Part shown: piece by piece, positions 30,036 through 42,716 of the stretch
Layout: every line of letters begins with the position of its first letter
How positions within the stretch are numbered: position 1 is the first letter of the stretch
DNA from: an uncultured Pseudobdellovibrionaceae bacterium
GTDB taxonomy: Bacteria; Patescibacteriota; Minisyncoccia; Moranbacterales; GCA-2747515
DNA: 64,000 nucleotides
Assembly: GCA_964463705.1 (NCBI GenBank)
Contig: CAYXCH010000006.1
Coordinates: forward strand, 32,576 to 96,575
Direction of reading: 5' to 3'
The notes under the pieces: model-generated
Database searches by the model: none
What the model was told of the DNA's origin: nothing
The model's input: the letters and a program-made list of their open reading frames with translations, nothing else
Program-made: the position numbers and the translations under genes

Positions 30036-32345
30036 TTAATCAAAATCTGATGATTTGCACTTACGATCCGGCACCGGCGCAACAATAATCTTACGGTCCA
30101 TTTCCTCGTAATATTTTCGAACACCACGCTCCCACGCCGTATACTGCGGATCTCTTTCCGGATGTTTTGGCGGCGGACCGAGCGGATTTTCTCTATCAAC
30201 ATAGTGCAAAATGCTGTGCGCGTTAATAAACTTACGCCGCTTGACATCCCGATCCGCATCCTCGCACGCATCGGATTTAAGGCACCAAGTATTCTTTTTC
30301 TTAGAAATGCGACATACTTTTTCCTCCACCATTTCCGGTACAAATCCATCCCGCAGCGGGCGACGCTCCGTATCATCATCTGTCGTCTTCGCATCAGACC
30401 CTTCCGCCTCATCATCACCATAATCCGGAAAATGCTCAATGCGCGTCCCGTCCAACGATTGTTCCAAAAACGCTCGCCAAATCGGTGCCGCTACGACGCT
30501 TCCCGACGCACCATCTCGCATTGGCCGGTTATCATTATTCCCCACCCATACACCAACCGCCAATGAGGGTGTATATCCCATTGTCCACGCATCACGAAAA
30601 CTGTTTGTCGTTCCCGTCTTTGCTGCAACAGGACGATCATCAAACCGCAACGGATTATTTGCGGAAAACGCCGGAACGCGGTACTTGTTGGTGGATAGTG
30701 CCTCATCAAGCATTGCAACATATTCCTCCTCCACTACACGCACCCCCTCCGTATCATGCCACTGTTCCACCACTTCTCCCTCTTTATCCTCAATACGCAA
30801 AATCATTGTCAGCGGCTTACGCACTCCGCCGTTTGCAAGGGTTGCATAGGCATGAGTATGATTTAACAGTGTTACTTCTCCACCACCCAACACCAGTGAC
30901 AACCCGTATCGCCGCGGATGCTCCAATCCCGTCACCCCCAGCTCTCGCGCAAGACGTGCCGCCTCCGACACACCAACCAAATACAACGCCTTTACCGCCG
31001 GGATATTCAAGGACATCGCCAACGCGCGCTTTACCTTTACCGGACCGCGAAATGTCCCATCATAGTTTCGCGGCTCATACGGATCTTCCCCGTCATCAAA
31101 TCGTGTTCGCACATCATACAGAATTGTATCCGGTGAGTACCCCTTACGAAACAACCCCAAATATACATAGGGTTTAAACGAGCTTCCCGGCTGTCGAAAG
31201 CGCATGGCAACATTAACATTTCCATCAATCTCGCGACTAAAATAGTCTACACTTCCCACCATCGCCAATACCTGTGCCGTCCGAGGATCAATCGCTACCA
31301 ATGCGGCATTTTCGGCATTATACCGAGCATTACGCTCTACCCCTTCACGAACGACCGTCTCGGCCCGGCGCTGTGCCTCCATATCAATCGTCGTAATCAC
31401 TCGCATCCCCGCCTCCTCCAACTCTTGTTTTCCGTAGCGCTTCTCCAAATACTCACGGATCGCCATCACAAAATGTGGCGCCCGAATCTGTGTTCGTTGC
31501 GGTGTTATCTTTTCTAACGTATCAATCGCCTTTGCCTCATCGGCACGTTGACGAGTAATGTATCCCAACTCCGCCATCTGATCCAGCGCATAGTGCTGAC
31601 GTCGTACAAGACGCTCCAAACGAGCCGGAGATGTGTTATACGGAGAATAGCGGGACGGTTGTTGCGGAAGCGCCGCCAGCAATGCCGCCTCATCCAGCGT
31701 CAGCTCTCGTGCATGTTTACCGAAAAATGTCTGCGCCGCCGCTTCAATTCCATATGCGTTGGACCCATACGGAATTTCGTTAAGGTACATTGCCAAAATT
31801 TCATCTTTGGTAAACTTACGCTCCAACTCCATTGAAAGAATAACCTCCTTCAGTTTGCGCTCATATGTACGCTCACTGGTCAATAACGTATTCTTAATCA
31901 ACTGCTGTGTAATCGTTGACCCTCCACTGCTGCGACCACCAACCAACTGCGGAAACACTTGGGAAATTGCCGCACGAAGAATTGCGGTAATCTTAACACC
32001 GTGATGTTTGTAAAAATCTTGATCCTCCAATGCAAGTGTCGCATAGCGCACAACTGTTGGAATTTCTTCAAATGGAATAATTGTTCGCTTCTCCTCTCCG
32101 TGAATATCATACAATAGTACCGTCCCCGTCCGATCATAAATTTTCGTAGACTCCACCACCTTCAATGCGGTAATCTCATCAGCGGGCGGCAAGTCTTTTG
32201 CGTAATACCAAAACACTCCCGCCGCTCCCACAAGCGCAATCACGCCGAGTGTCAATATACCGTATGTCGCAATTCGCCCTATCGTTCGCCACATTGTCCG
32301 CCGCGATGCCCGCCGTCGCTTTCGCATATGATATCGTGCACCCAT
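30036..32345 (-). CDS. mrcA: Class A penicillin-binding protein (bifunctional glycosyltransferase/transpeptidase, PBP1A-like)
   Basis: N-terminal TM, GT51 motifs (LEDQDFYKHHGV, GGSTITQQLIKN), and transpeptidase motifs (PGSSFKP, SLN, KTGTT). Confidence 0.9.
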   Translation of the reverse strand: MGARYHMRKRRRASRRTMWRTIGRIATYGILTLGVIALVGAAGVFWYYAKDLPPADEITALKVVESTKIYDRTGTVLLYDIHGEEKRTIIPFEEIPTVVRYATLALEDQDFYKHHGVKITAILRAAISQVFPQLVGGRSSGGSTITQQLIKNTLLTSERTYERKLKEVILSMELERKFTKDEILAMYLNEIPYGSNAYGIEAAAQTFFGKHARELTLDEAALLAALPQQPSRYSPYNTSPARLERLVRRQHYALDQMAELGYITRQRADEAKAIDTLEKITPQRTQIRAPHFVMAIREYLEKRYGKQELEEAGMRVITTIDMEAQRRAETVVREGVERNARYNAENAALVAIDPRTAQVLAMVGSVDYFSREIDGNVNVAMRFRQPGSSFKPYVYLGLFRKGYSPDTILYDVRTRFDDGEDPYEPRNYDGTFRGPVKVKRALAMSLNIPAVKALYLVGVSEAARLARELGVTGLEHPRRYGLSLVLGGGEVTLLNHTHAYATLANGGVRKPLTMILRIEDKEGEVVEQWHDTEGVRVVEEEYVAMLDEALSTNKYRVPAFSANNPLRFDDRPVAAKTGTTNSFRDAWTMGYTPSLAVGVWVGNNDNRPMRDGASGSVVAAPIWRAFLEQSLDGTRIEHFPDYGDDEAEGSDAKTTDDDTERRPLRDGFVPEMVEEKVCRISKKKNTWCLKSDACEDADRDVKRRKFINAHSILHYVDRENPLGPPPKHPERDPQYTAWERGVRKYYEEMDRKIIVAPVPDRKCKSSDFD

Positions 32346-32504: not shown

Positions 32505-33338
32505 TTATTTCAAAACACTGTCAATGGCCTGCATATACTTTTCCGGCTGACCAATAAAATCAAAATGTCCGCCTTTTACTGAACAAAATCCATCCAAATA
32601 TCCATCTTCATACGCTTTCCCTAATTTCTTTTGAATTTTATCCATAAAAAAAGTAAGATCATCTGCGCCGGCAATGACTGAAATTTTAATTCCTTTTTCT
32701 TTAAGTTCTTTCATAATTTCCATAATGTCAAATTCGGCCAATTCGCTTACTTCATCATATGATCGGCGTGGATTTTTTTGAATATATTTAGCCGATTCTT
32801 TTATCATTCTATAGCCGTCAGCTGGATAATTAACAATAAATTTTAATAAATCCATCACAAATAAACCGAATAATTTAAATTTATTTTCCCATCCGGTTAA
32901 GCCGGCCGGATTTAATAAAACTATATTATTAAATTTTTCCGGATATTGTCTGGCTACCAGCAACAAATTTATAGCCCCTTCCGAATAACCGATTGCATCC
33001 GTCTTCTCAATCTGTTTTCTCTCCAATATTGAAAGTAAAGAAACCGCCTTACGGAGTTCCTCTGTTTCTTCCTTGCTTCCATCAATTCTAGCATGACTCA
33101 ACGATACCACTCGACGTTTTTGTTTAGCCAATTCTTTTAACGGTTTTTCTATAGAATCGATTGTTATTGACCAGCCGGGAGCAAAAAACACCGGAATATC
33201 CGTTTTCATTTCGTCGGGAACAATATCAATGGTGTCAATTGTTCCCCAGGTAAATTCTTCTTGTCCTTTAAATACCTTTAATTCAATTTCTTTTCGGCCC
33301 TTTTCCGAAAAATCAATATTATCCCTTGGTGAAAACAT
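32505..33338 (-). CDS. Alpha/beta-fold hydrolase
   Basis: GYSEGA nucleophile elbow (GxSxG) with downstream Asp/His candidates. The local GC is markedly lower than in neighbouring genes. Confidence 0.6.
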   Translation of the reverse strand: MFSPRDNIDFSEKGRKEIELKVFKGQEEFTWGTIDTIDIVPDEMKTDIPVFFAPGWSITIDSIEKPLKELAKQKRRVVSLSHARIDGSKEETEELRKAVSLLSILERKQIEKTDAIGYSEGAINLLLVARQYPEKFNNIVLLNPAGLTGWENKFKLFGLFVMDLLKFIVNYPADGYRMIKESAKYIQKNPRRSYDEVSELAEFDIMEIMKELKEKGIKISVIAGADDLTFFMDKIQKKLGKAYEDGYLDGFCSVKGGHFDFIGQPEKYMQAIDSVLK

Positions 33339-33774
33339 AATTAATAAAGTTATCTACAACTGTTTTAGAAATCTCTCTGCCTATTCTGTTACAGAATTTT
33401 TCATTTTAATGGTTAAGTCAATACTATCTTAAAAGCTGTTTATTCCCCCGCTTACAATAAGGGATTGGCATTTGAATTTGAGTGCAAGAGCACATCCGTT
33501 TACGAAATAAGTTTTCATAGCAAACTCAATCACAAAGCGATGACTGCTTTACAAAGTAAAATACTTATTTAGAGCTTGTCAACTATTTGTATTTTTGATG
33601 TGTCGCTTCTATCACAAAATACACTTTGGATAAAAACAAGTTGTACAGAATTCCACTACACTTTTGCTTCACTCTGTTGCCATCTTAGCGCATCATTAAA
33701 AACATATTATATTAAGCATTACAACCCCGTACGCATTTCGAAATCTGAACGAGTACTTTATTTGTTGCACTATA

Positions 33775-34260
33775 TTACCTTACATCAACAATCTCAATTT
33801 CTATAACATTAGAGGTCTCAATCTCTCCAGTTTGTGCATTTCTGGCGGTAATGAATACTTTGTGCGGTGATGATTTTTTCGGGAATTTACTGGCGTGTAT
33901 TTTTATATAGTTGCTTTCATTTTTTTGTATCAAGCGACCACTAATCGGTATTTTATTTCCATTATCATCAATAATGTACACGATAAAATCACTACCGCTC
34001 GGAAAAGATTTACTTGTTCTAAAGTAAACTGTTTCGGAGTTTGTATACTTGCTGCCGGCACGAATAAAAAACGTGCCTTCATTTTCTACTTCATGACTTG
34101 CGGAAACGTTATATTGTCGCTTAGGCTGCGCACTTTTCTCTGTTTGCTCTTCTATCCATTCTATTGCTACAGGAATAAGATTTAATACTCCGACAATAAC
34201 CATAGATAATATGATGAGTACTATAATTCCAACAATGTCGCCTTTATTGTTCGTAGTCAT
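33775..34260 (-). CDS. TM-anchored small protein with beta-rich extracytoplasmic domain, hypothetical
   Basis: N-terminal TM (IVGIIVLIILSMVIVGVL). AT-rich codon usage. The neighbouring gene is 13 nt downstream on the same strand. Confidence 0.4.
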   Translation of the reverse strand: MTTNNKGDIVGIIVLIILSMVIVGVLNLIPVAIEWIEEQTEKSAQPKRQYNVSASHEVENEGTFFIRAGSKYTNSETVYFRTSKSFPSGSDFIVYIIDDNGNKIPISGRLIQKNESNYIKIHASKFPKKSSPHKVFITARNAQTGEIETSNVIEIEIVDVR

Positions 34261-34272
34261 GGATGTTTGAAG

Positions 34273-35049
34273 TTAAGAAGAAATGATTGCGTAGGTAAAA
34301 TATGATATTGTAATACCTATGGCGAGCATTGAGACTATATAAAACCATGTAAGCCACTTCCTTTCAAGGAAAAATAATAATGTGTTTATTAGTCCGGACA
34401 CAATGGCAACAATAATTGCATATATGCCTATATATTCATCAGGAGTTCCAAATAAAAATATCAAGCCTATGCCAATACAAACAATTGGAAACAATGACAT
34501 GAGAATCAAAAAAGTGACACCCTCTTCGCCGATAAGTCCCTTAATGGTTTTATCTTTGGAAAGTAGAACAATAAGAAATTCTCTTAGAGAATACCGTATT
34601 GACGGCAATTGCCTTACCGGGTTGTTGTAGAATGGATGATATAGCAAATAAATAGAGAGAATTGTACTTATTATCATAGCAAGCTGTTCCAATATAAGTA
34701 CCGCCATGAAAATATCTTGCCCACCATTAAGTGAGTATTCCTCCTTAATCACAAAAAAGAACGGTATCATTAAAAAATTAAGCACTACCATTAAGATTAA
34801 TGCCAGCCTTTGTCCATAAAGAATGCCGTATATGGCATAAGTGTCCAAATACAACCAAACAGCTGAAAACGGAATATACAGTAAAAGTGCTATGAGGCAA
34901 CCAAAGTCTGTACACCCGTTATAAAACTTGAGTATTGACGGTACCACCTGCATAAAAACAACCAGACCCACACATGCTATCACCAACGCCTGCCAAGGAC
35001 GTCCCGACAGAAATTCTTGTCGTATAATATTGTTTACACCCATACCCAC
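34273..35049 (-). CDS. Polytopic membrane protein, hypothetical
   Basis: Seven to eight hydrophobic helices. No recognisable motif. Confidence 0.45.
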   Translation of the reverse strand: MGMGVNNIIRQEFLSGRPWQALVIACVGLVVFMQVVPSILKFYNGCTDFGCLIALLLYIPFSAVWLYLDTYAIYGILYGQRLALILMVVLNFLMIPFFFVIKEEYSLNGGQDIFMAVLILEQLAMIISTILSIYLLYHPFYNNPVRQLPSIRYSLREFLIVLLSKDKTIKGLIGEEGVTFLILMSLFPIVCIGIGLIFLFGTPDEYIGIYAIIVAIVSGLINTLLFFLERKWLTWFYIVSMLAIGITISYFTYAIISS

Positions 35050-35426: not shown

Positions 35427-37145
35427 CTACAGTATGAAGCGAGATTTTACTTGCTCCCACACTTCCCGTGAGTAAAATTCTGGTCGCATAATTTTATCCT
35501 CATCCAACAATCCCCATTTTTTCAAAATCCGCGCGGAATCAATATTGACTCCTGATACATAAGCATACTTATCTGCCCCAAATTTTTCCAATTCCTTCAT
35601 CACACGCAATTGCTCCAAATACACCAAATCCTTGGAACTCGTAGGTTCTCCACCGGATAGTGAACGAGCTCCACGGAACAGTCGCAATGTACGATTAACC
35701 GCCAGGCGCATCAATCGATCTCGCTCTGCGCGTGCAGACGTTGCCGAAACCGCATTGGTGGACTCCTGTTTATCTATTGACTGAACAGCATTTTTATAGA
35801 ATGTCTCCACGCACTGCGCAAAATCTCCACCGGTACTGCGCACGGCAAGCGCTCGCACATAATTTGACGCCGGCAATTGACGATAACCAAACAACTCCCG
35901 AGAAATTTTATCCTGGTTGTACATTGCGCCCGCTTCGGCATACAGCTCCGATCTATCCCCGCGAATATCGCCAAATAACTTAAGAGGTAAATGCTTTCTA
36001 TTTTCACTTTGCAATACATGCCCCTCCACTTCATGCGCACACGCCACGGAAACCGCCTTGGCAATGGAAATTTTTCTGCACGGAATTTTAATAACTTTTT
36101 GCACACCATCTACAAACATTCCTCCACCATCGGTTACCACCACTTGCCACTTGTTATCCGATGCCGGCCCCGGACGATTTACGGTATAATACTTGGAATC
36201 CTCCATGCTCTTGACACCGTACTGTTCCAACACAAATTCCACCATACGCACCACCTCCTCACTATCAACAGTTTCCGCAAATAATTTTTCCGGATCAATA
36301 CCTCGCTGACGGATACGCTCTTCTCGCATGCTATCGTTTTGATACCGTTCGGCATCAATATAATCGGCAAAATCAAGAAGTTCTTTGGTTAAAGCCGAAT
36401 ATATGCCTGACACATCCGGAGAATCACTCGCCCCGAACACAAACCGATCGTATCGTGCGGTATTGCGATCTGATTGCTTGGGTGGTGATTGAGTAAAGCG
36501 CTTATCTGCAGCTATTGCCATTTGCGTCCGTGCAATCAATTCATTGACACGCTGTAGATACAGTATTAAAAAATCCTTCTTAATTGAATCGTTCTCTCCG
36601 GGCAATTGTGTCAATTCGTTTTTTATACGCTGCTTAAACGCCCGCAAGTCCCGCAATTTTTTCTCGGTTTCATCCGGATTAAGCACATAGTGCACCCGCT
36701 CTGTTACACCGGCATCCAGAGAAAACGTCTCTCCACGTTGCAACTGCTGCTGAAACCGCTCTACACTATCATTACAAAAGTATTGCATGGAACGATTTCC
36801 CAACTCCTTTATTTCCGTGATATCAGTCGTTGACATCTTCCCAATGCTGCGCGTGATTTCTTCCGTCACTGATTGCGGAGAATTGCCCAACAACTTCACT
36901 CCGGTTACCTCCGTGAAATCCTTCCGTCCGTGATCAGTTAAAAAGTACCCGGTATAAAAATCCGTCGTTACTACCGGGACTTTGTATATTTCATACAACT
37001 CATCGCCAAGTCTGTTTTCATACGCTATAAACTCTACGCGCTCAGACTCAGATAACCGATACACCTCTTGATTTTCCAATTTTTGAACCGACCCAGCAAT
37101 TGTTTCCGGTGGACGCCGCGGGTAGAGTGATTCTTTTTCGTACAT
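35427..37145 (-). CDS. Putative zinc metallopeptidase (HExxH) of a family often linked to ATP-grasp ligases
   Basis: CAHEVEGHV contains an HExxH motif with a downstream Glu (ELYAEAG). It lies head-to-tail with RimK-like genes on the same strand. Confidence 0.5.
   Translation of the reverse strand: MYEKESLYPRRPPETIAGSVQKLENQEVYRLSESERVEFIAYENRLGDELYEIYKVPVVTTDFYTGYFLTDHGRKDFTEVTGVKLLGNSPQSVTEEITRSIGKMSTTDITEIKELGNRSMQYFCNDSVERFQQQLQRGETFSLDAGVTERVHYVLNPDETEKKLRDLRAFKQRIKNELTQLPGENDSIKKDFLILYLQRVNELIARTQMAIAADKRFTQSPPKQSDRNTARYDRFVFGASDSPDVSGIYSALTKELLDFADYIDAERYQNDSMREERIRQRGIDPEKLFAETVDSEEVVRMVEFVLEQYGVKSMEDSKYYTVNRPGPASDNKWQVVVTDGGGMFVDGVQKVIKIPCRKISIAKAVSVACAHEVEGHVLQSENRKHLPLKLFGDIRGDRSELYAEAGAMYNQDKISRELFGYRQLPASNYVRALAVRSTGGDFAQCVETFYKNAVQSIDKQESTNAVSATSARAERDRLMRLAVNRTLRLFRGARSLSGGEPTSSKDLVYLEQLRVMKELEKFGADKYAYVSGVNIDSARILKKWGLLDEDKIMRPEFYSREVWEQVKSRFIL
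35631..35738. repeat. 108-nt direct repeat, copy A, inside the metallopeptidase-like gene
   Basis: About 96% identical to 38110..38217 (4 mismatches). Confidence 0.8.
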
Positions 37146-37158
37146 ACAACTTTAGTTA

Positions 37159-38049
37159 TCAACTGGAGAAGCTTTTATGAAAACCGGCAAGAATTTCTTG
37201 AACTATGTTTTTATTGCTATGTGCAATTTGAAATCCCTTGAAATTGGCTGATAGGTTAATTTCTATCACCCTGAACCGCTTATTGCTGTCAACGATAATA
37301 TCAACCCCCACATAATCACACAACAATTTTTGCGCAACGTTTTCGGCAAATTTAAACATTTTCACGTCATAATATGATTCAATTGAAGCGCCTTGCGAGA
37401 AGTTATGCTTCCAATCACTGGTTGTGCCCGACCTTTTAATGGCCCCAATGGTCTTTCCGGCACACACTATGACACGGTAATCACAAGTAGTTGGTATAAA
37501 CTCTTGTAAAATAATGCTCTTATCTGGATTTTTGGCAACATAGTCAACTAAATCTTGCTCGGTACTCATTTTATGTACGCTAAGACCGAAGCTTCCCTCA
37601 ACATCCTTTAAAATAATTGGAAACGACCAAGGAATAACCTTCAACAAGTATTTTGAATTTTGGCTTACAGGATGCAAGGTGTCAATTGTCGGTATATTAT
37701 ATTTCAAAAAAAGTTCATATTGTGAAAATTTATCAAAAAATGGATTTTTTGCAAAAAAATCACCATTTACCACCGGAACAGAATTTTCTCGTAAAAATAA
37801 TATCAAACGATATGTTGAAATTCTTTTTTTGATAAGTGTATTATCAACCACCTTGTCATGACAACGCACAATAGCGCCGTTAAATTGTGAAATATCCAGT
37901 AACCGCTGACGATAAATCAGTTTATTTTCATAAAAAAACAGGTTATCAACATTTATAAAAACAAACTCCCAATTCAACCTCAACGCCTCTTCTTTTATGG
38001 TTTTTACTGAGTGAAATTTTTCATTAAAACCAAAATATATAACTTTCAT
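37159..38049 (-). CDS. RimK-like ATP-grasp ligase
   Basis: DYRVIVCAGKTIGAIKRSGTTSDWKHNFSQGA matches the RimK DIR..VG...A..R....DFRSN...GG signature. Confidence 0.65.
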   Translation of the reverse strand: MKVIYFGFNEKFHSVKTIKEEALRLNWEFVFINVDNLFFYENKLIYRQRLLDISQFNGAIVRCHDKVVDNTLIKKRISTYRLILFLRENSVPVVNGDFFAKNPFFDKFSQYELFLKYNIPTIDTLHPVSQNSKYLLKVIPWSFPIILKDVEGSFGLSVHKMSTEQDLVDYVAKNPDKSIILQEFIPTTCDYRVIVCAGKTIGAIKRSGTTSDWKHNFSQGASIESYYDVKMFKFAENVAQKLLCDYVGVDIIVDSNKRFRVIEINLSANFKGFQIAHSNKNIVQEILAGFHKSFSS

Positions 38050-38058
38050 ATATTTTAC

Positions 38059-38316
38059 TTAATCCTCAAATCTAACCGAACACCTACCTATACTCACCAT
38101 TTTACAGTACTTGGAACTTGTAAGTTCTCCACCGGATAGTGAACGAGCTCCACGAAACAGTCGCAATGTACGATTAACCGCCAGGCGCATCAATCGATCT
38201 CGCTCCGCGCGTGCAGATTCTGAAAGTTCGCAAACGTCCTGATTTTTTAATTGTTCTACCGACTCCTTCACCATATCTGGCTGTCTTTGCGGATACAGTA
38301 ATAAGTTCTCTAGCAT
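38059..38316 (-). pseudogene. Internally deleted remnant of a paralog of the 35427..37145 gene
   Basis: The N-terminal ~37 aa are homologous to the N-terminus of the 572-aa protein (LYPqRqP...SVeqLkNQ...LSES). The sequence then jumps directly to a near-identical copy of its residues ~455-490 (ARAERDRLMRLAVNRTLRLFRGARSLSGGE). Confidence 0.5.
38110..38217. repeat. 108-nt direct repeat, copy B
   Basis: About 96% identical to 35631..35738. Confidence 0.8.
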
Positions 38317-38331
38317 AAATATTTCAACAGA

Positions 38332-39261
38332 TTATTTCAACTTGCTCTTGATAAGCTCTACAATTTCATCACTCATATCAACTCCAACAGCGTCAAGGCA
38401 ATGTTTGTACAATCCCGGACGTCCATTTTCATCAATAATCTTATATCCTTCATCGGTAGCGATAAAATCAAACCCTATAATATCTTTTCCGATCGCTTGT
38501 TGTGCTTTTACAGCAATATGTGCCAACTCTTCACTAACAGGTGCCGGTACCGTCTTTTGCCCGCGACCGTCCTGTTTAAGCGGATCATAAATTTTCCAAT
38601 CTACTTCATCTGATAATAACGGTTTGCGATACCCGAATAATGCCCGTCCGTTACACACCACCACCGAAATCCATCGTGACAAATCATTTTGATAGTACTT
38701 TTCTACCAAAAACTGCTGTTTAGCACCACTGAATCCCTGTACATATTCTATGCAACTTTGTAATTCATCAAATTTATCAAAACGCATAATACCAATTCCC
38801 CATCCACCGAAACGTGGCTTAAGCAACACATCACCGCCAAACGTATCAAAAACTTTGTGCAATCCGTCAATGTCACCACTGCGAATCAATGCAAAATCAC
38901 CTACCGGTAGACCTGCCTTTTTGAGCCTCGTATGTGCGAGAAACTTATCATTTGTTATACGCACACTCTCTCCTGTATTGATTACCGCTACATCAGCACC
39001 CATCACATCCAACATATGACAAAAGTAATTATCCGCTCTCCAATCAGACGGTCGTACCGTATCATGCCAAAAATAAACATCCAAATCATTTAAACACACA
39101 TCACCAACATACACTTTATTGTTGATAATGACTCCGTTGCGAAAGTCTGCCTCCACCAAATCACAATTCGTAGCGGCAACAATATCACGCTTTATGTGCT
39201 CAATATATTCGGGGGTAAAAATTCCCTGAACTGATTTATGAAATCCTATACGCTTTTTCAT
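38332..39261 (-). CDS. ATP-grasp superfamily ligase (RimK/GshB-like)
   Basis: LKPRFGGWGIGIMRFDKFDEL ... ISVVVCNGRALFGYRK pattern of the ATP-grasp fold. The start is probably MKKRIGF. Confidence 0.6.
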   Translation of the reverse strand: MKKRIGFHKSVQGIFTPEYIEHIKRDIVAATNCDLVEADFRNGVIINNKVYVGDVCLNDLDVYFWHDTVRPSDWRADNYFCHMLDVMGADVAVINTGESVRITNDKFLAHTRLKKAGLPVGDFALIRSGDIDGLHKVFDTFGGDVLLKPRFGGWGIGIMRFDKFDELQSCIEYVQGFSGAKQQFLVEKYYQNDLSRWISVVVCNGRALFGYRKPLLSDEVDWKIYDPLKQDGRGQKTVPAPVSEELAHIAVKAQQAIGKDIIGFDFIATDEGYKIIDENGRPGLYKHCLDAVGVDMSDEIVELIKSKLK

Positions 39262-40087
39262 ATCGTTTGAGTATATGATTAATAATATGGTTTGCAACAT
39301 TAATTCCGGTCGCCGACTGAAATGCTTCCCATTGCGGGGGAATATTTACTTCCAATACCAATGAATCACTACCACGTTTGATTAAGTCAACACCCGAAAT
39401 ATCATATCCAAACAACTTATGTGCTCGTAATGCCAGCGCCTTTTCCTCTTGTGATAAGTCATACTCCTCAACCTTTCCGCCGAGGGACGCATTGGTGCGA
39501 AAATCTCCTTCATTAGCATACCGCTTAATCGCCCCGAGTACCATATCACCAACCACAAACACACGGATATCGTAGCGAAGCGGAACATATTCCTGAGCCA
39601 AATACCCTATCGGATGTTCTCGCAAAAACTCTAAGGCCTGTTCTTTCGTTTCGTATTTGTTAACACCCTGTCCTTTCTGTGCTTGTTCTGGCTTCAAAAT
39701 AATTGGTGTATCTAACTTAGACAAAACTCGCTTCCACTGTTTCCAGCTTCTGGCATAAACAGTTTTCGGATGCGGAATATTATTTAACTTAAACTGTAAT
39801 GCTTCATAAACCTTCGTAGGAATATACGAACTGGCAAGCACCGTATCAATAACCAATTTATTCTTTATATGTAAATTATAAGCAAGTAACTGTGCAAAAA
39901 CAACAGATTGATTAAATCCCCTGAATATATAGATATCGTGTTGAAAAAATTCCTCCTCGTCCATCGTATCAACGGAAAATGCGATATCCGATATATTATA
40001 TACCACAACCGCAAACCCTCGGCGTGATATTTCTCGCACCAACGATTTTGTGTTAAATGTGTCCGGACCGATAATTGCGAATTTCAT
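39236..40087 (-). CDS. RimK-like ATP-grasp ligase
   Basis: ILKPEQAQKGQGV and YDIRVFVVGDMVLGAIKRYANEGDFRTNASLGG, the classic RimK signature. Confidence 0.75.
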   Translation of the reverse strand: MKFAIIGPDTFNTKSLVREISRRGFAVVVYNISDIAFSVDTMDEEEFFQHDIYIFRGFNQSVVFAQLLAYNLHIKNKLVIDTVLASSYIPTKVYEALQFKLNNIPHPKTVYARSWKQWKRVLSKLDTPIILKPEQAQKGQGVNKYETKEQALEFLREHPIGYLAQEYVPLRYDIRVFVVGDMVLGAIKRYANEGDFRTNASLGGKVEEYDLSQEEKALALRAHKLFGYDISGVDLIKRGSDSLVLEVNIPPQWEAFQSATGINVANHIINHILKRYEKAYRIS

Positions 40088-40096
40088 AAAATATTT

Positions 40097-41512
40097 TTAC
40101 TTACTCACATCAACCAAAAACTTGTAAAGGTTGCGTTTTCCGATAATCATCGGATATTTGAGCTTACTGCGGTCTACAATATTAACTTTTGCCACAATGC
40201 GTACTCCATCCATAATGAACGCCAGTTTTACAACCGGGCGAATCGTTGCGCCACTGGAAGAAAACACAACGGCAACATCTTCCAACTCCGGAATACACTG
40301 CCCGTATCGCTGCATAATACGCGACTTAATTTCACCCTCTCGTTCCGGCGATAACACACTATCGCCGTAATCAATACGATCAAATGCATCCAGTGTTTCA
40401 CCAAATCCCAACTCCCGTGCCAGCGCACGATCAATGGAGGTGGAGTATGCACCGGTGTCAATTTTTGCACTAACGGTGCGTTCGGTACCGTTTCGTCCAA
40501 TCAATGTTACCGTTTCTATGGATCCGATTACACGCTTTCCGGTTGTCTGCTCCACCGATTCCTCAACTTCTCCGCCAAAGAGGTCTTTACCGACACGAAC
40601 ACCGTGCGCAACACTCTTGATTGTTACACCGCTTACTCGTTCCAATCGCTCTTTTAACGGTGCCATATTGGCAATCTGAATAGACAACCCGGGTCGTGCA
40701 TTTAACTCCAAAAATACCGGTCCGCGCTCACGATCAATTACCACATCCGCTCCCAAAAATCCCAACCCGCTCGCCTCCTGCGCCTTCACCGCCAATGTCA
40801 AAATCTCATCCCATTGCGGAATTTTAATACCGGAAAGTAACATACGTGTCCCCGGCGCATATTCCACAATCCGCCCCTTTCCTTGAATTGCCGTAGTTGT
40901 TACTCCCGTTGCCATATCAATTCCGACACCAACACCTCCAAGCTGTAAATTCGCCTTCCCTCCACTCTCACGTGTAGGAAGCCGCAACATTGCCATTACC
41001 GGAACACGATTGTACACGATAATGCGCAGATCCGGAATTCCCCGATATGCATAGGGACGGAACAATTTCAACAGCGTTAACCGCTCTTCAATCAATACCG
41101 TGTCGGATACTCCGGATAACGCAAACGCTCCTTCCACAATATTGTAGCAGTGTGCGGCAATATCTTGTGCGGTAACAATACTCCCATCCGCCTTCACCCA
41201 AGCGTCATGCATTCCCTTCTTTCGCCCGAATACCACCACAATACCGCCACCGCCAAACCCGCGATTTGGCTTGATAACAAATGATTCCGGAAGACTGGAG
41301 TAATCAAATGTACGGACATCGTCATAAGTGCGCAGCGTGGCGATGCGTGTCGGCGTCGGCACACCGGCGCGCGATAATACGTCCTTGCTGAGAATTTTAT
41401 CATCGGCAATACTGCGTGCGGCGGATAAATTCAACGGTCGCACATACGTTAAGTTGCGCGCATTCATTCCCAGGATCCGGTGCGCGTTTCGCACCATCCG
41501 TAATATGTTCAT
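40097..41512 (-). CDS. RimK-related ATP-grasp ligase fused to a C-terminal retropepsin-like (DTG) domain
   Basis: ATP-grasp part: FVIKPNRGFGGGGIVVV ... DLRIIVYNRVPVMAMLRL...GGKANLQLGG. C-terminal part: TVSAKIDTGAYSTSIDRALARELG, with an aspartyl-protease D-T-G-A motif. Confidence 0.7.
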   Translation of the reverse strand: MNILRMVRNAHRILGMNARNLTYVRPLNLSAARSIADDKILSKDVLSRAGVPTPTRIATLRTYDDVRTFDYSSLPESFVIKPNRGFGGGGIVVVFGRKKGMHDAWVKADGSIVTAQDIAAHCYNIVEGAFALSGVSDTVLIEERLTLLKLFRPYAYRGIPDLRIIVYNRVPVMAMLRLPTRESGGKANLQLGGVGVGIDMATGVTTTAIQGKGRIVEYAPGTRMLLSGIKIPQWDEILTLAVKAQEASGLGFLGADVVIDRERGPVFLELNARPGLSIQIANMAPLKERLERVSGVTIKSVAHGVRVGKDLFGGEVEESVEQTTGKRVIGSIETVTLIGRNGTERTVSAKIDTGAYSTSIDRALARELGFGETLDAFDRIDYGDSVLSPEREGEIKSRIMQRYGQCIPELEDVAVVFSSSGATIRPVVKLAFIMDGVRIVAKVNIVDRSKLKYPMIIGKRNLYKFLVDVSK

Positions 41513-41516
41513 ACAC

Positions 41517-42209
41517 TTACTTCATGCGCATCAGTACATCGCGGAAGCGAATGTACTCGGAAAATCGCAATCCCGTCCATTTACCTACGATAATATTCAG
41601 CGGAATTACCAATAATACACTGTACGGGTGCGCAAATACAAACATTTGGATAGCGCGAGATGACAGCAATGCATGTCCCAACAGTGCCACCACCAACGTC
41701 TCCACCGCCAATAATATCGCCGTCTTTGTTCCTTTTTCAATTTGTACCGCCACAAACTTCTCCGCAATCATCACCAACACAATCAACGGAAACACGTAAA
41801 TGGTGGCAAACCCGGTTCGCTGAAAGTATGCTCCGATTACCAACACCGCCAAGGTTGTAAATGACAATAACGTCATGGTAATCGCTACGCGCGGAAGGTA
41901 CAAAATTCGCACATGGCGCAGAACGGCACGGGAGGCAATGCCCACAACAATCACCGCAATATAAATGGTAATCCCGTACCGCAAATCATATAACATGTCT
42001 CCCAACGCAAACCCGTCATAGCGTGCGTCACTGATCATATAAAACACCAGAGCAATAATGGAAGGGGTGTAAATTCCAAATGCCTTAATTCCAATCACCT
42101 GACGCAGAACAGCCACCAGTGTCGCCACCAGCGGAAACAATAACAAAAGCAGCACCGTTTGGTCCGGAATTCCCAAATAAACAATGATATTATTGATCAT
42201 CGGATGCAT
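41517..42209 (-). CDS. Polytopic membrane protein co-transcribed with the RimK-retropepsin gene
   Basis: Six to seven hydrophobic helices. Only 4 nt separate it from the downstream ATP-grasp gene. Confidence 0.5.
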   Translation of the reverse strand: MHPMINNIIVYLGIPDQTVLLLLLFPLVATLVAVLRQVIGIKAFGIYTPSIIALVFYMISDARYDGFALGDMLYDLRYGITIYIAVIVVGIASRAVLRHVRILYLPRVAITMTLLSFTTLAVLVIGAYFQRTGFATIYVFPLIVLVMIAEKFVAVQIEKGTKTAILLAVETLVVALLGHALLSSRAIQMFVFAHPYSVLLVIPLNIIVGKWTGLRFSEYIRFRDVLMRMK

Positions 42210-42230: not shown

Positions 42231-42716
42231 CTACATTTGCACACTGTTACGCATGGCTGCATGGCAAATAGCTACCGCCAATGCATCCGCCGCATCGTCC
42301 GGAGTCGGTAAATCGGAAAGGGTGCAAATTTTTTGCACCATCAGTTGCACTTGGTGTTTTTGCGCCCGCCCATGTCCCGTCACCGACTGCTTTACCTGCG
42401 AAGGAGTGTATGCGTCAATGGAAAGATTAGCATTGGCACACGCCGCCAGTAACACCCCGCGCGCCTGTGCAACGGGAATTACCGTTGTATGATTTTTCGC
42501 AAAAAACAACCGTTCCACCGCCGCTTCCTGCGGAGTGTACCGTGTAATAATCTGAGCAATATCTCGGGCGATTTCCGCCAACCGCTGCGCGTCGGATAAT
42601 ACGCTGTCCGTGGTAATACAACCATGCGCAACATGATGAATACGGGAACCATCCGCATCAATCACTCCCCAGCCGACAATCGCCGTCCCGGGATCAATAC
42701 CTAAAATTCTTGTCAT
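42231..42716 (-). CDS. ruvC: Holliday junction resolvase
   Basis: MTRILGIDPGTAIVGWGVID N-terminus with catalytic acidic residues. Confidence 0.9.
   Translation of the reverse strand: MTRILGIDPGTAIVGWGVIDADGSRIHHVAHGCITTDSVLSDAQRLAEIARDIAQIITRYTPQEAAVERLFFAKNHTTVIPVAQARGVLLAACANANLSIDAYTPSQVKQSVTGHGRAQKHQVQLMVQKICTLSDLPTPDDAADALAVAICHAAMRNSVQM

Follow-up and report, generated by a model that had tools for sequence, protein, structure and literature searches.

A probable two-age remnant of a second MATCAP-like peptidase gene in an ATP-grasp ligase operon of a Patescibacteria-type genome

Why does a 108-nucleotide (nt) piece of a metallopeptidase gene recur, almost letter for letter, in a small open reading frame (ORF) on the far side of a neighbouring ligase gene? 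The question is raised by a stretch of 64,000 nt, here termed the window (positions 32,576 to 96,575 of contig CAYXCH010000006.1, assembly GCA_964463705.1, from an uncultured bacterium of the GTDB lineage Patescibacteriota). A minus-strand operon of the window, bounded by ruvC (42231-42716) and a PBP1A gene (30036-32345), carries RimK-type ATP-grasp ligase genes, an intact peptidase gene (pepA) for a protein of 572 amino acids (aa) and an 85-aa ORF that holds the second copy of the 108-nt piece. The ORF is probably (at a rough probability of 0.68) a chimeric remnant of a second MATCAP-like peptidase gene (pepB), specific to this lineage, presumably non-functional and formed in at least two events. 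The features that bear on this reading are:

35427-37145, minus strand: intact gene (pepA) for a 572-aa predicted MATCAP-like zinc peptidase, with an AHEVEGH motif
35631-35738, minus strand: repeat copy A, within pepA (codons 470-505)
37037-37046, minus strand: TCTGAGCGCG, codons 34-37 of the intact gene and counterpart of the remnant joint in a three-way alignment
37159-38049, minus strand: RimK-type ATP-grasp ligase of 296 aa (PF08443), between the two repeats
38059-38316, minus strand: 85-aa ORF from the ORF list, probable chimeric remnant of a peptidase gene, matching two separate parts of the 572-aa protein
38059-38109, minus strand: orphan tail of the ORF, 16 codons and a stop, guanine-cytosine (GC) content 0.35, 51 nt in place of the peptidase 3' end
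38110-38217, minus strand: repeat copy B, codons 34-69 of the ORF, the apparently young 108-nt patch
38218-38316, minus strand: codons 1-33 of the ORF, the apparently old 5' segment, homologous to codons 1-33 of the peptidase gene
38332-39261, minus strand: RimK-type ligase of 309 aa (PF08443), immediately upstream of the remnant

The direct repeat is gap-free, with 104 of 108 positions identical between 35631-35738 and 38110-38217 (blastn E about 1e-45). An earlier reading of the bare letters (the first-pass annotation) had counted about 96% identity, and the nucleotide alignment gives a value no lower. Identity extends over runs of 11, 50, 31, 3 and 9 nt and drops abruptly at both edges, which are sharp; the four differences comprise three synonymous changes and one Pro/Leu exchange. 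The residues encoded by copy A are 470-505 of the 572-aa protein (wrongly given as ~455-490 in the first-pass annotation), and they match residues 34-69 of the ORF at 35 of 36 positions. In the AlphaFold model of the 572-aa protein, the region is one helix (468-490) and a loop and makes up no domain. The first 38 residues of the ORF align with the first 38 of the protein (19/38 identical, pairwise E 2e-9), which bears out the peptidase-like N-terminus ascribed to the ORF at the outset; the homology of this 5' piece spans 33-37 codons.

The rest of a peptidase gene is gone. The ORF is without codons 34-469, which include the HExxH site at 371-376, and without codons 506-572; beyond codon 505, the identity with pepA gives way to 51 nt of orphan sequence. 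The tail has no similar sequence in the window or any fetched locus (blastn-short) nor in the peptidase C-termini (translated comparison), and a scan of 30-44 kb of the window for further peptidase fragments, such as the far end of the replaced gene, finds none. Searched among 5.8 billion proteins, the ORF matches only itself; it has no Pfam or NCBIfam match, and it is not conserved as an independent gene in these proteins or in 27 related loci. Homology to a full-length gene whose essential parts are missing is what a gene remnant displays, and the view that the ORF derives from a peptidase-type gene is thus supported. What the ORF retains amounts, in the structural model, to a disordered N-terminus, an incomplete helix, and a further helix with its loop. 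Although open, the ORF is thus unlikely to yield a product that folds and functions.

The two pieces of the remnant appear to differ in age. Codons 1-33 are identical to those of the intact gene at 56 of 99 nt (57%), with 23/33, 23/33 and 10/33 matches at codon positions 1, 2 and 3. Third positions at the random level, with first and second positions kept, are best read as long divergence under coding constraint (purifying selection), so that the 5' piece would derive from an anciently diverged, long-functional gene. By comparison, protein identity across the family over residues 470-505 is only 25-56%; conservation thus does not account for the 96% nt identity of the patch, which appears far younger than the 5' piece. 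Since both parts should have decayed together from the time the remnant was formed, the divergence of the 5' part would have stood at about 40% by the time the patch joined it. The unequal ages of the halves and the lost 3' end (codons 506-572) call for at least two events and two breakpoints.

The joint between the pieces is well defined. The N-terminal homology passes into the patch at TCTG, with CGCG 2 nt later, in frame and connecting codon position 1 to codon position 1. In a three-way alignment, the joint sequence of the remnant, TCTGCACGCG, is also that at peptidase codon 470, and its counterpart at codons 34-37 of the intact gene is TCTGAGCGCG; TCTG is common to all three sequences and CGCG lies 2 nt on (4+4 nt). 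The microhomology junction of the first-pass annotation is thereby borne out. The colinear homologous flanks of classical ectopic gene conversion are not seen at copy B, where the 5' flank is codons 1-33, not codons 437-469, and the 3' flank is without homology.

The position of the ORF also points to a former peptidase gene. Among available relatives, L003 (GCA_054013435.1) is the closest, with 61-75% identity to the window in the flanking proteins. Its genes run in the order YebC-RuvC-7TM-ATPgrasp_ST-RimK285-RimK307-peptidase-PBP1A. The 309-aa ligase of the window (RimK309) is 73% identical to the 307-aa ligase that directly precedes the L003 peptidase gene. The ATG of the latter lies 8 nt after RimK307, and that of the remnant lies 15 nt after the RimK309 stop. 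Thus, the remnant occupies the ancestral peptidase start site, as the L003 peptidase starts in the same slot after an orthologous ligase. The 296-aa ligase has no counterpart in L003, where the peptidase and PBP1A genes are adjacent; its homologues in the related loci L026, L027 and L030 (45-51% identity) lie in a different slot, between the ATPgrasp_ST and RimK285-like genes. The number of RimK-type ligases ranges from 1 to 4 across related loci, some relatives having one or two. An intact second copy of this peptidase family was looked for in related genomes, and the 27 loci hold neither a second copy nor a remnant.

The order and mechanism of events proposed here start from a pepB that would once have begun directly behind the 309-aa RimK-type ligase gene, in the ancestral peptidase slot, followed by the 296-aa ligase gene and then by pepA. 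Codons 1-33 of the remnant would be what survives of pepB, which would have diverged from pepA long ago under coding constraint. Most of pepB would later have been lost, and a copy of pepA codons 470-505 would have been joined in frame to codon 33 at TCTG..CGCG. This may have occurred in the course of repair or replication, if synthesis switched templates at the microhomology to pepA, which lies 2.4 kb downstream (i.e., a deletion with a templated patch); alternatively, an earlier gene-conversion tract may have been trimmed later by two deletions. The order of pepB and the 296-aa ligase gene could stem from an old duplication or from import from a related species, and import is favoured for the ligase arrangement because the GC content of the 296-aa ligase gene is 0.34, compared to 0.46 for pepA and the window.

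Similarly to the truncated or chimeric pseudogene remnants of gene displacement in bacterial operons, the 85-aa ORF is short, has no catalytic core, is found in one lineage and lies in the ancestral slot. What sets it apart from such ordinary remnants is that its two parts differ in age and meet, in frame, at a microhomology. It also resembles templated insertion of the kind ascribed to microhomology-mediated break-induced replication (MMBIR), or ectopic conversion, in its sharp joint at a 4+4 nt microhomology and its short tract from a same-strand homologue 2.4 kb away. By contrast to those cases, the mechanism is deduced here from the product alone, the second joint has no identifiable partner and colinear homologous flanks are missing.

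Certain observations weigh against the history preferred here. Deletion joints with templated patches have been described more fully for eukaryotes than for bacteria. No available relative falls between 99.9% and about 72% protein identity, so that the ancestral two-copy state is deduced rather than observed. The frame of the ORF continues through the joint without interruption, and three of the four repeat differences are synonymous, which is weakly compatible with coding constraint on the remnant, with the caveat that the changes may sit in the intact copy and that a joint is in frame by chance in 1 of 3 cases.

An alternative that is unlikely is import by homology-facilitated illegitimate recombination, in which DNA of a related species, anchored by homology on one side and joined at TCTG..CGCG on the other, would have broken a resident peptidase copy. 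The cargo might be the 296-aa ligase gene with adjacent sequence or, alternatively, the 3' end of RimK309 with the 5' end of a foreign peptidase gene; on this account, the remnant halves would come from different genomes. The compositional outliers of the locus are the 296-aa ligase gene (GC 0.339 versus a window mean of 0.457), found in a slot not seen in relatives, and three genes downstream of pepA that are likewise low in GC and specific to the lineage, all of which fits an import. So does the non-orthologous replacement of peptidase genes in this slot in L030, and the N-terminal divergence of the remnant (~50% at the aa level) equals that of orthologues in the sister species L026 and L027. 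Import would still require a prior upstream copy of pepA codons 470-505, and so is no simpler; no donor was found, the best ligase homologue being 51% identical.

The intact gene itself also argues against import. Its GC content is native (0.456 versus the window mean of 0.457), and no mosaic structure is found along its length. Its product is 38-41% identical to the L003 peptidase, a value that fits vertical descent at a faster rate: in the L026-L027 comparison, identity is 80-92% for the flanking proteins but 62% for the peptidase and 59% for the R295 ligase, such that the peptidase and ligases evolve about threefold faster than the flanking genes. Vertical inheritance of pepA may well be the case, and a candidate reading of pepA as a xenologue (from the 38% identity to L003) is rejected on this calibration and the absence of a mosaic. 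A Campbell-type integration at the 108-nt region predicts a native pepA 3' end with ~70% identity to L003, but that end is at 47-48%, like the neighbouring regions, and this candidate is rejected.

Quite improbable is the account of the first-pass annotation, in which a recent tandem duplicate of the present peptidase gene lost codons 38-469 in one internal deletion at a microhomology. Both pieces are indeed homologous to one gene, in the same order and frame, and the 4+4 nt microhomology is in place, so that the peptidase-gene remnant and its joint stand. One duplication and one deletion do not, as the pieces should then be equally diverged, yet they are 57% and 96% identical (56/99 versus 104/108) with the third positions of the old piece saturated (10/33), and a single breakpoint should leave the 3' end intact, whereas the 67 codons of that end are missing too. 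Moreover, the intervening 296-aa ligase gene is a duplicate of nothing in the locus (at most 30% identical to the RimK283 ligase), and none of the 27 related loci shows a relative with two copies.

It is very improbable that the ORF encodes a functional small protein, whether a regulator or decoy that binds either the ligases or the partner of the peptidase, or a substrate of RimK-type ligases via its C-terminus (..RFED). The reading frame stays open and unshifted across the joint, three assemblies have it annotated as a gene, and it lies inside an operon with the tight spacing of real genes; the patch has persisted for about 3.7% divergence with three of its four substitutions synonymous. However, this synonymous bias rests on four sites whose changes may have occurred in the intact gene, and a 258-nt ORF can stay open by chance. 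The product has no homologue anywhere among the 5.8 billion proteins and no counterpart in the 27 loci, and it would consist of an orphan tail added to scraps of a large helical fold, namely a disordered N-terminus, an incomplete helix and a helix with a loop. Shine-Dalgarno motifs are generally missing from the genes of the locus, and the start-site context is thus uninformative for this ORF.

Slimmer still is the chance of a more elaborate role, in which the N-terminal segment and one conserved helix-loop (..NRTLRLFRG..SLSGG..SSK) form a domesticated mini-protein acting as a decoy, regulator or ligase substrate, or in which the 108-nt repeats serve as a switch by which some members of the population lose ligase and peptidase together. 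The repeats have uninterrupted identical runs of 50 and 31 nt in common, which would allow them to recombine. Such an event would remove 2479 nt, i.e., the ligase gene and peptidase codons 1-469 with the HExxH site, and leave a 136-aa ORF. The repeats could thus act as deletion substrates, as first annotated, though the loss would not be confined to the ligase gene.

Independent assemblies bear on both the stability of the locus and its reality. The exact 85-aa product is encoded on contigs of two other metagenomes (L001, ENA ERZ27262694; L002, JGI 3300028908), which match the window at 99.89% identity over 12.1 kb and at 99.94% over 3.5 kb, respectively. Copy A is found on a further JGI contig (L025, Ga0256914_1040578) with the same four differences from copy B, and all three contigs are 99.8-99.9% identical to the window. 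The repeat copies are thus distinct and reproducible, as independent assemblies keep the same four differences, and assembly collapse or chimerism is excluded as far as assemblies alone permit. An assembly artefact (a repeat collapsed or made chimeric by the assembler) is a negligible prospect and is rejected: contigs of metagenome-assembled genomes (MAGs) can be chimeric, and one JGI contig starts exactly at the pepA microhomology, but two further assemblies, made in different projects, contain copy B in its context and a third contig contains copy A, with the same differences, and copies that differ are not collapsed.

The JGI contig in question, L025, starts at window position 37039, inside the TCTGAGCGCG of pepA codons 34-37, while its sister contig L002 ends at 37299, with the 260 nt between them unassembled. 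For the four contig ends of the region, the chance that one falls inside a 10-nt target is roughly 1%. The start could mark a variant joint in that population or be a coincidence; were the repeats a switch, it would hint at variant joints.

The first-pass annotation also took the island to be recently rearranged and still in flux. The locus is rearranged; that this is recent or ongoing is not borne out, as the patch copies are 3.7% diverged compared to ~0.1% among the three sampled strains, and the arrangement is identical in all three. Thus, the event long predates the spread of the strain, and the plasticity of the locus is one between species, not within the sampled population.

The remnant itself carries little weight; its value is as a dated footprint of a second, long-functional paralogue that would later have been destroyed in the peptidase slot. 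Around it, ligase and peptidase genes turn over and move, while the flanking ruvC, 7TM, ATPgrasp_ST and PBP1A genes stay fixed. For annotation, the 85-aa ORF is better flagged as a pseudogene fragment than as a hypothetical protein. The feature is of a familiar kind, a pseudogene fragment, and the operon is of a plastic and little-studied Patescibacteria ATP-grasp/MATCAP-like type. The operon is also of more interest than the remnant for C-terminal peptide-tagging in reduced genomes, since it combines RimK-type ligases with a predicted MATCAP-like carboxypeptidase and Rlo-like components.

The assignment of the 572-aa protein as a predicted MATCAP-like carboxypeptidase comes from its MATCAP-like fold with an HExxH zinc site. 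Only about eight proteins of its family are detectable in a word-indexed search. The PF08014 (MATCAP/DUF1704) hidden Markov model does not match the 572-aa protein even at E<=1; it matches three of seven aligned homologues (best E 3.9e-7), and the proteins P0004 and P0005 carry a precomputed PF08014 annotation. Compared to the PF08014 metallocarboxypeptidases, the 572-aa protein thus falls below Pfam detection, and it has an extra N-terminal helical region of ~300 residues. A search of the PDB with the family profile of the protein returns noise only. The protein is in the protein database, yet a look-up by its exact sequence gives no record.

The remaining genes of the operon and its surroundings are:

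39236-40087, minus strand: RimK283 ligase (Pfam/NCBIfam)
40097-41512, minus strand: ATPgrasp_ST ligase fused to a retropepsin-like domain, 471 aa (Pfam/NCBIfam)
41517-42209, minus strand: 7TM_transglut membrane protein, 230 aa (PF14402)
32505-35049, minus strand: three low-GC genes (0.35-0.36) between the peptidase and PBP1A genes, for a 258-aa multi-pass membrane protein, a 161-aa protein and a 277-aa alpha/beta hydrolase

Five proteins of the operon are recognisable by Pfam and NCBIfam: the 7TM_transglut protein, the ATPgrasp_ST and retropepsin-like fusion, and the RimK-type ligases of 283, 309 and 296 aa. The 7TM_transglut protein, the fusion and RimK283 have syntenic orthologues in L003, at 61-75% identity. 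The 471-aa fusion matches PF14397 and TIGR02291 at its N-terminus, with weak matches to PF05618 and RloA-type models at its C-terminus. The 230-aa membrane protein matches PF14402 and positions 311-506 of the RloB profile NF052267 (72 bits versus a cutoff of 900), and thus the 7TM part only. The three low-GC genes have no counterpart in any related locus and are probably a separate insertion. No tRNA gene lies within about 12 kb of the island.

This set shares a 7TM_transglut-type membrane protein, an alpha-L-glutamate-ligase-like ATP-grasp ligase and a retropepsin-like domain with the Rlo (RloA-RloB-RloC) and Rim (RimB-RimK) operons of Pseudomonas (PMC12239564). An ATP-grasp ligase and a retropepsin-like peptidase, the pair typical of Rlo, are both present; unlike in Pseudomonas Rim and Rlo, where the protease is separate, the retropepsin-like domain (RimB/RloA-type, PF05618) is fused to the ATP-grasp protein. 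The membrane protein departs from RloB, as it has the 7TM part and lacks the transglutaminase-like domain. Beyond the Rlo/Rim operons, the window adds three extra RimK-type ligases and a MATCAP-like peptidase, in a Patescibacteria-type genome.

Rearrangement of the peptidase gene is also seen in relatives. In L026 (10682-12541) and L027 (10699-12558), a 619-aa family peptidase gene is inverted relative to the ligase genes. In L030 (10653-12050), the slot holds a gene for a 465-aa canonical PF08014 MATCAP protein that is barely related. L030 also has a fourth ATP-grasp gene (332 aa) and, ahead of the PBP1A gene, a reverse-strand gene for 391 aa. Replacement has a hot spot in the peptidase slot. 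Two Paceibacterota loci, L005 (6040-9305) and L006 (253-3518), carry a 618-aa family member followed by a canonical MATCAP gene (421-437 aa, PF08014) and a convergent ATP-grasp_4/D-Ala-D-Ala-ligase-like gene, as a smaller ligase-peptidase module outside the ruvC-PBP1A context. The canonical gene of these two loci was considered as a second copy and rejected, as it belongs to a different subfamily.

Two further observations concern the related loci. In L029 (2695-3549), which is 99.86% identical to L027, the RimK285-like ligase gene has two in-frame stops (..GIL*L*IYY..), a sign either that the ligase gene has become a pseudogene in this near-identical strain or that the Logan assembly contains errors. 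Several MAGs with this operon (L007, L009 and L012) are labelled 'uncultured Bdellovibrionales', yet in synteny and in protein identity (48-57%) their loci go with others assigned to Moranbacteria or Paceibacterota, and the taxonomic labels look doubtful.

Within the window, the mechanical ORF of the 309-aa ligase is 322 aa long, with a start at 39300 and a 65-nt overlap with the end of the RimK283 gene. The gene callers of other assemblies start this ligase at the ATG at 39261, and its L003 orthologue has 307 aa; the shorter start (39261) is probably correct.

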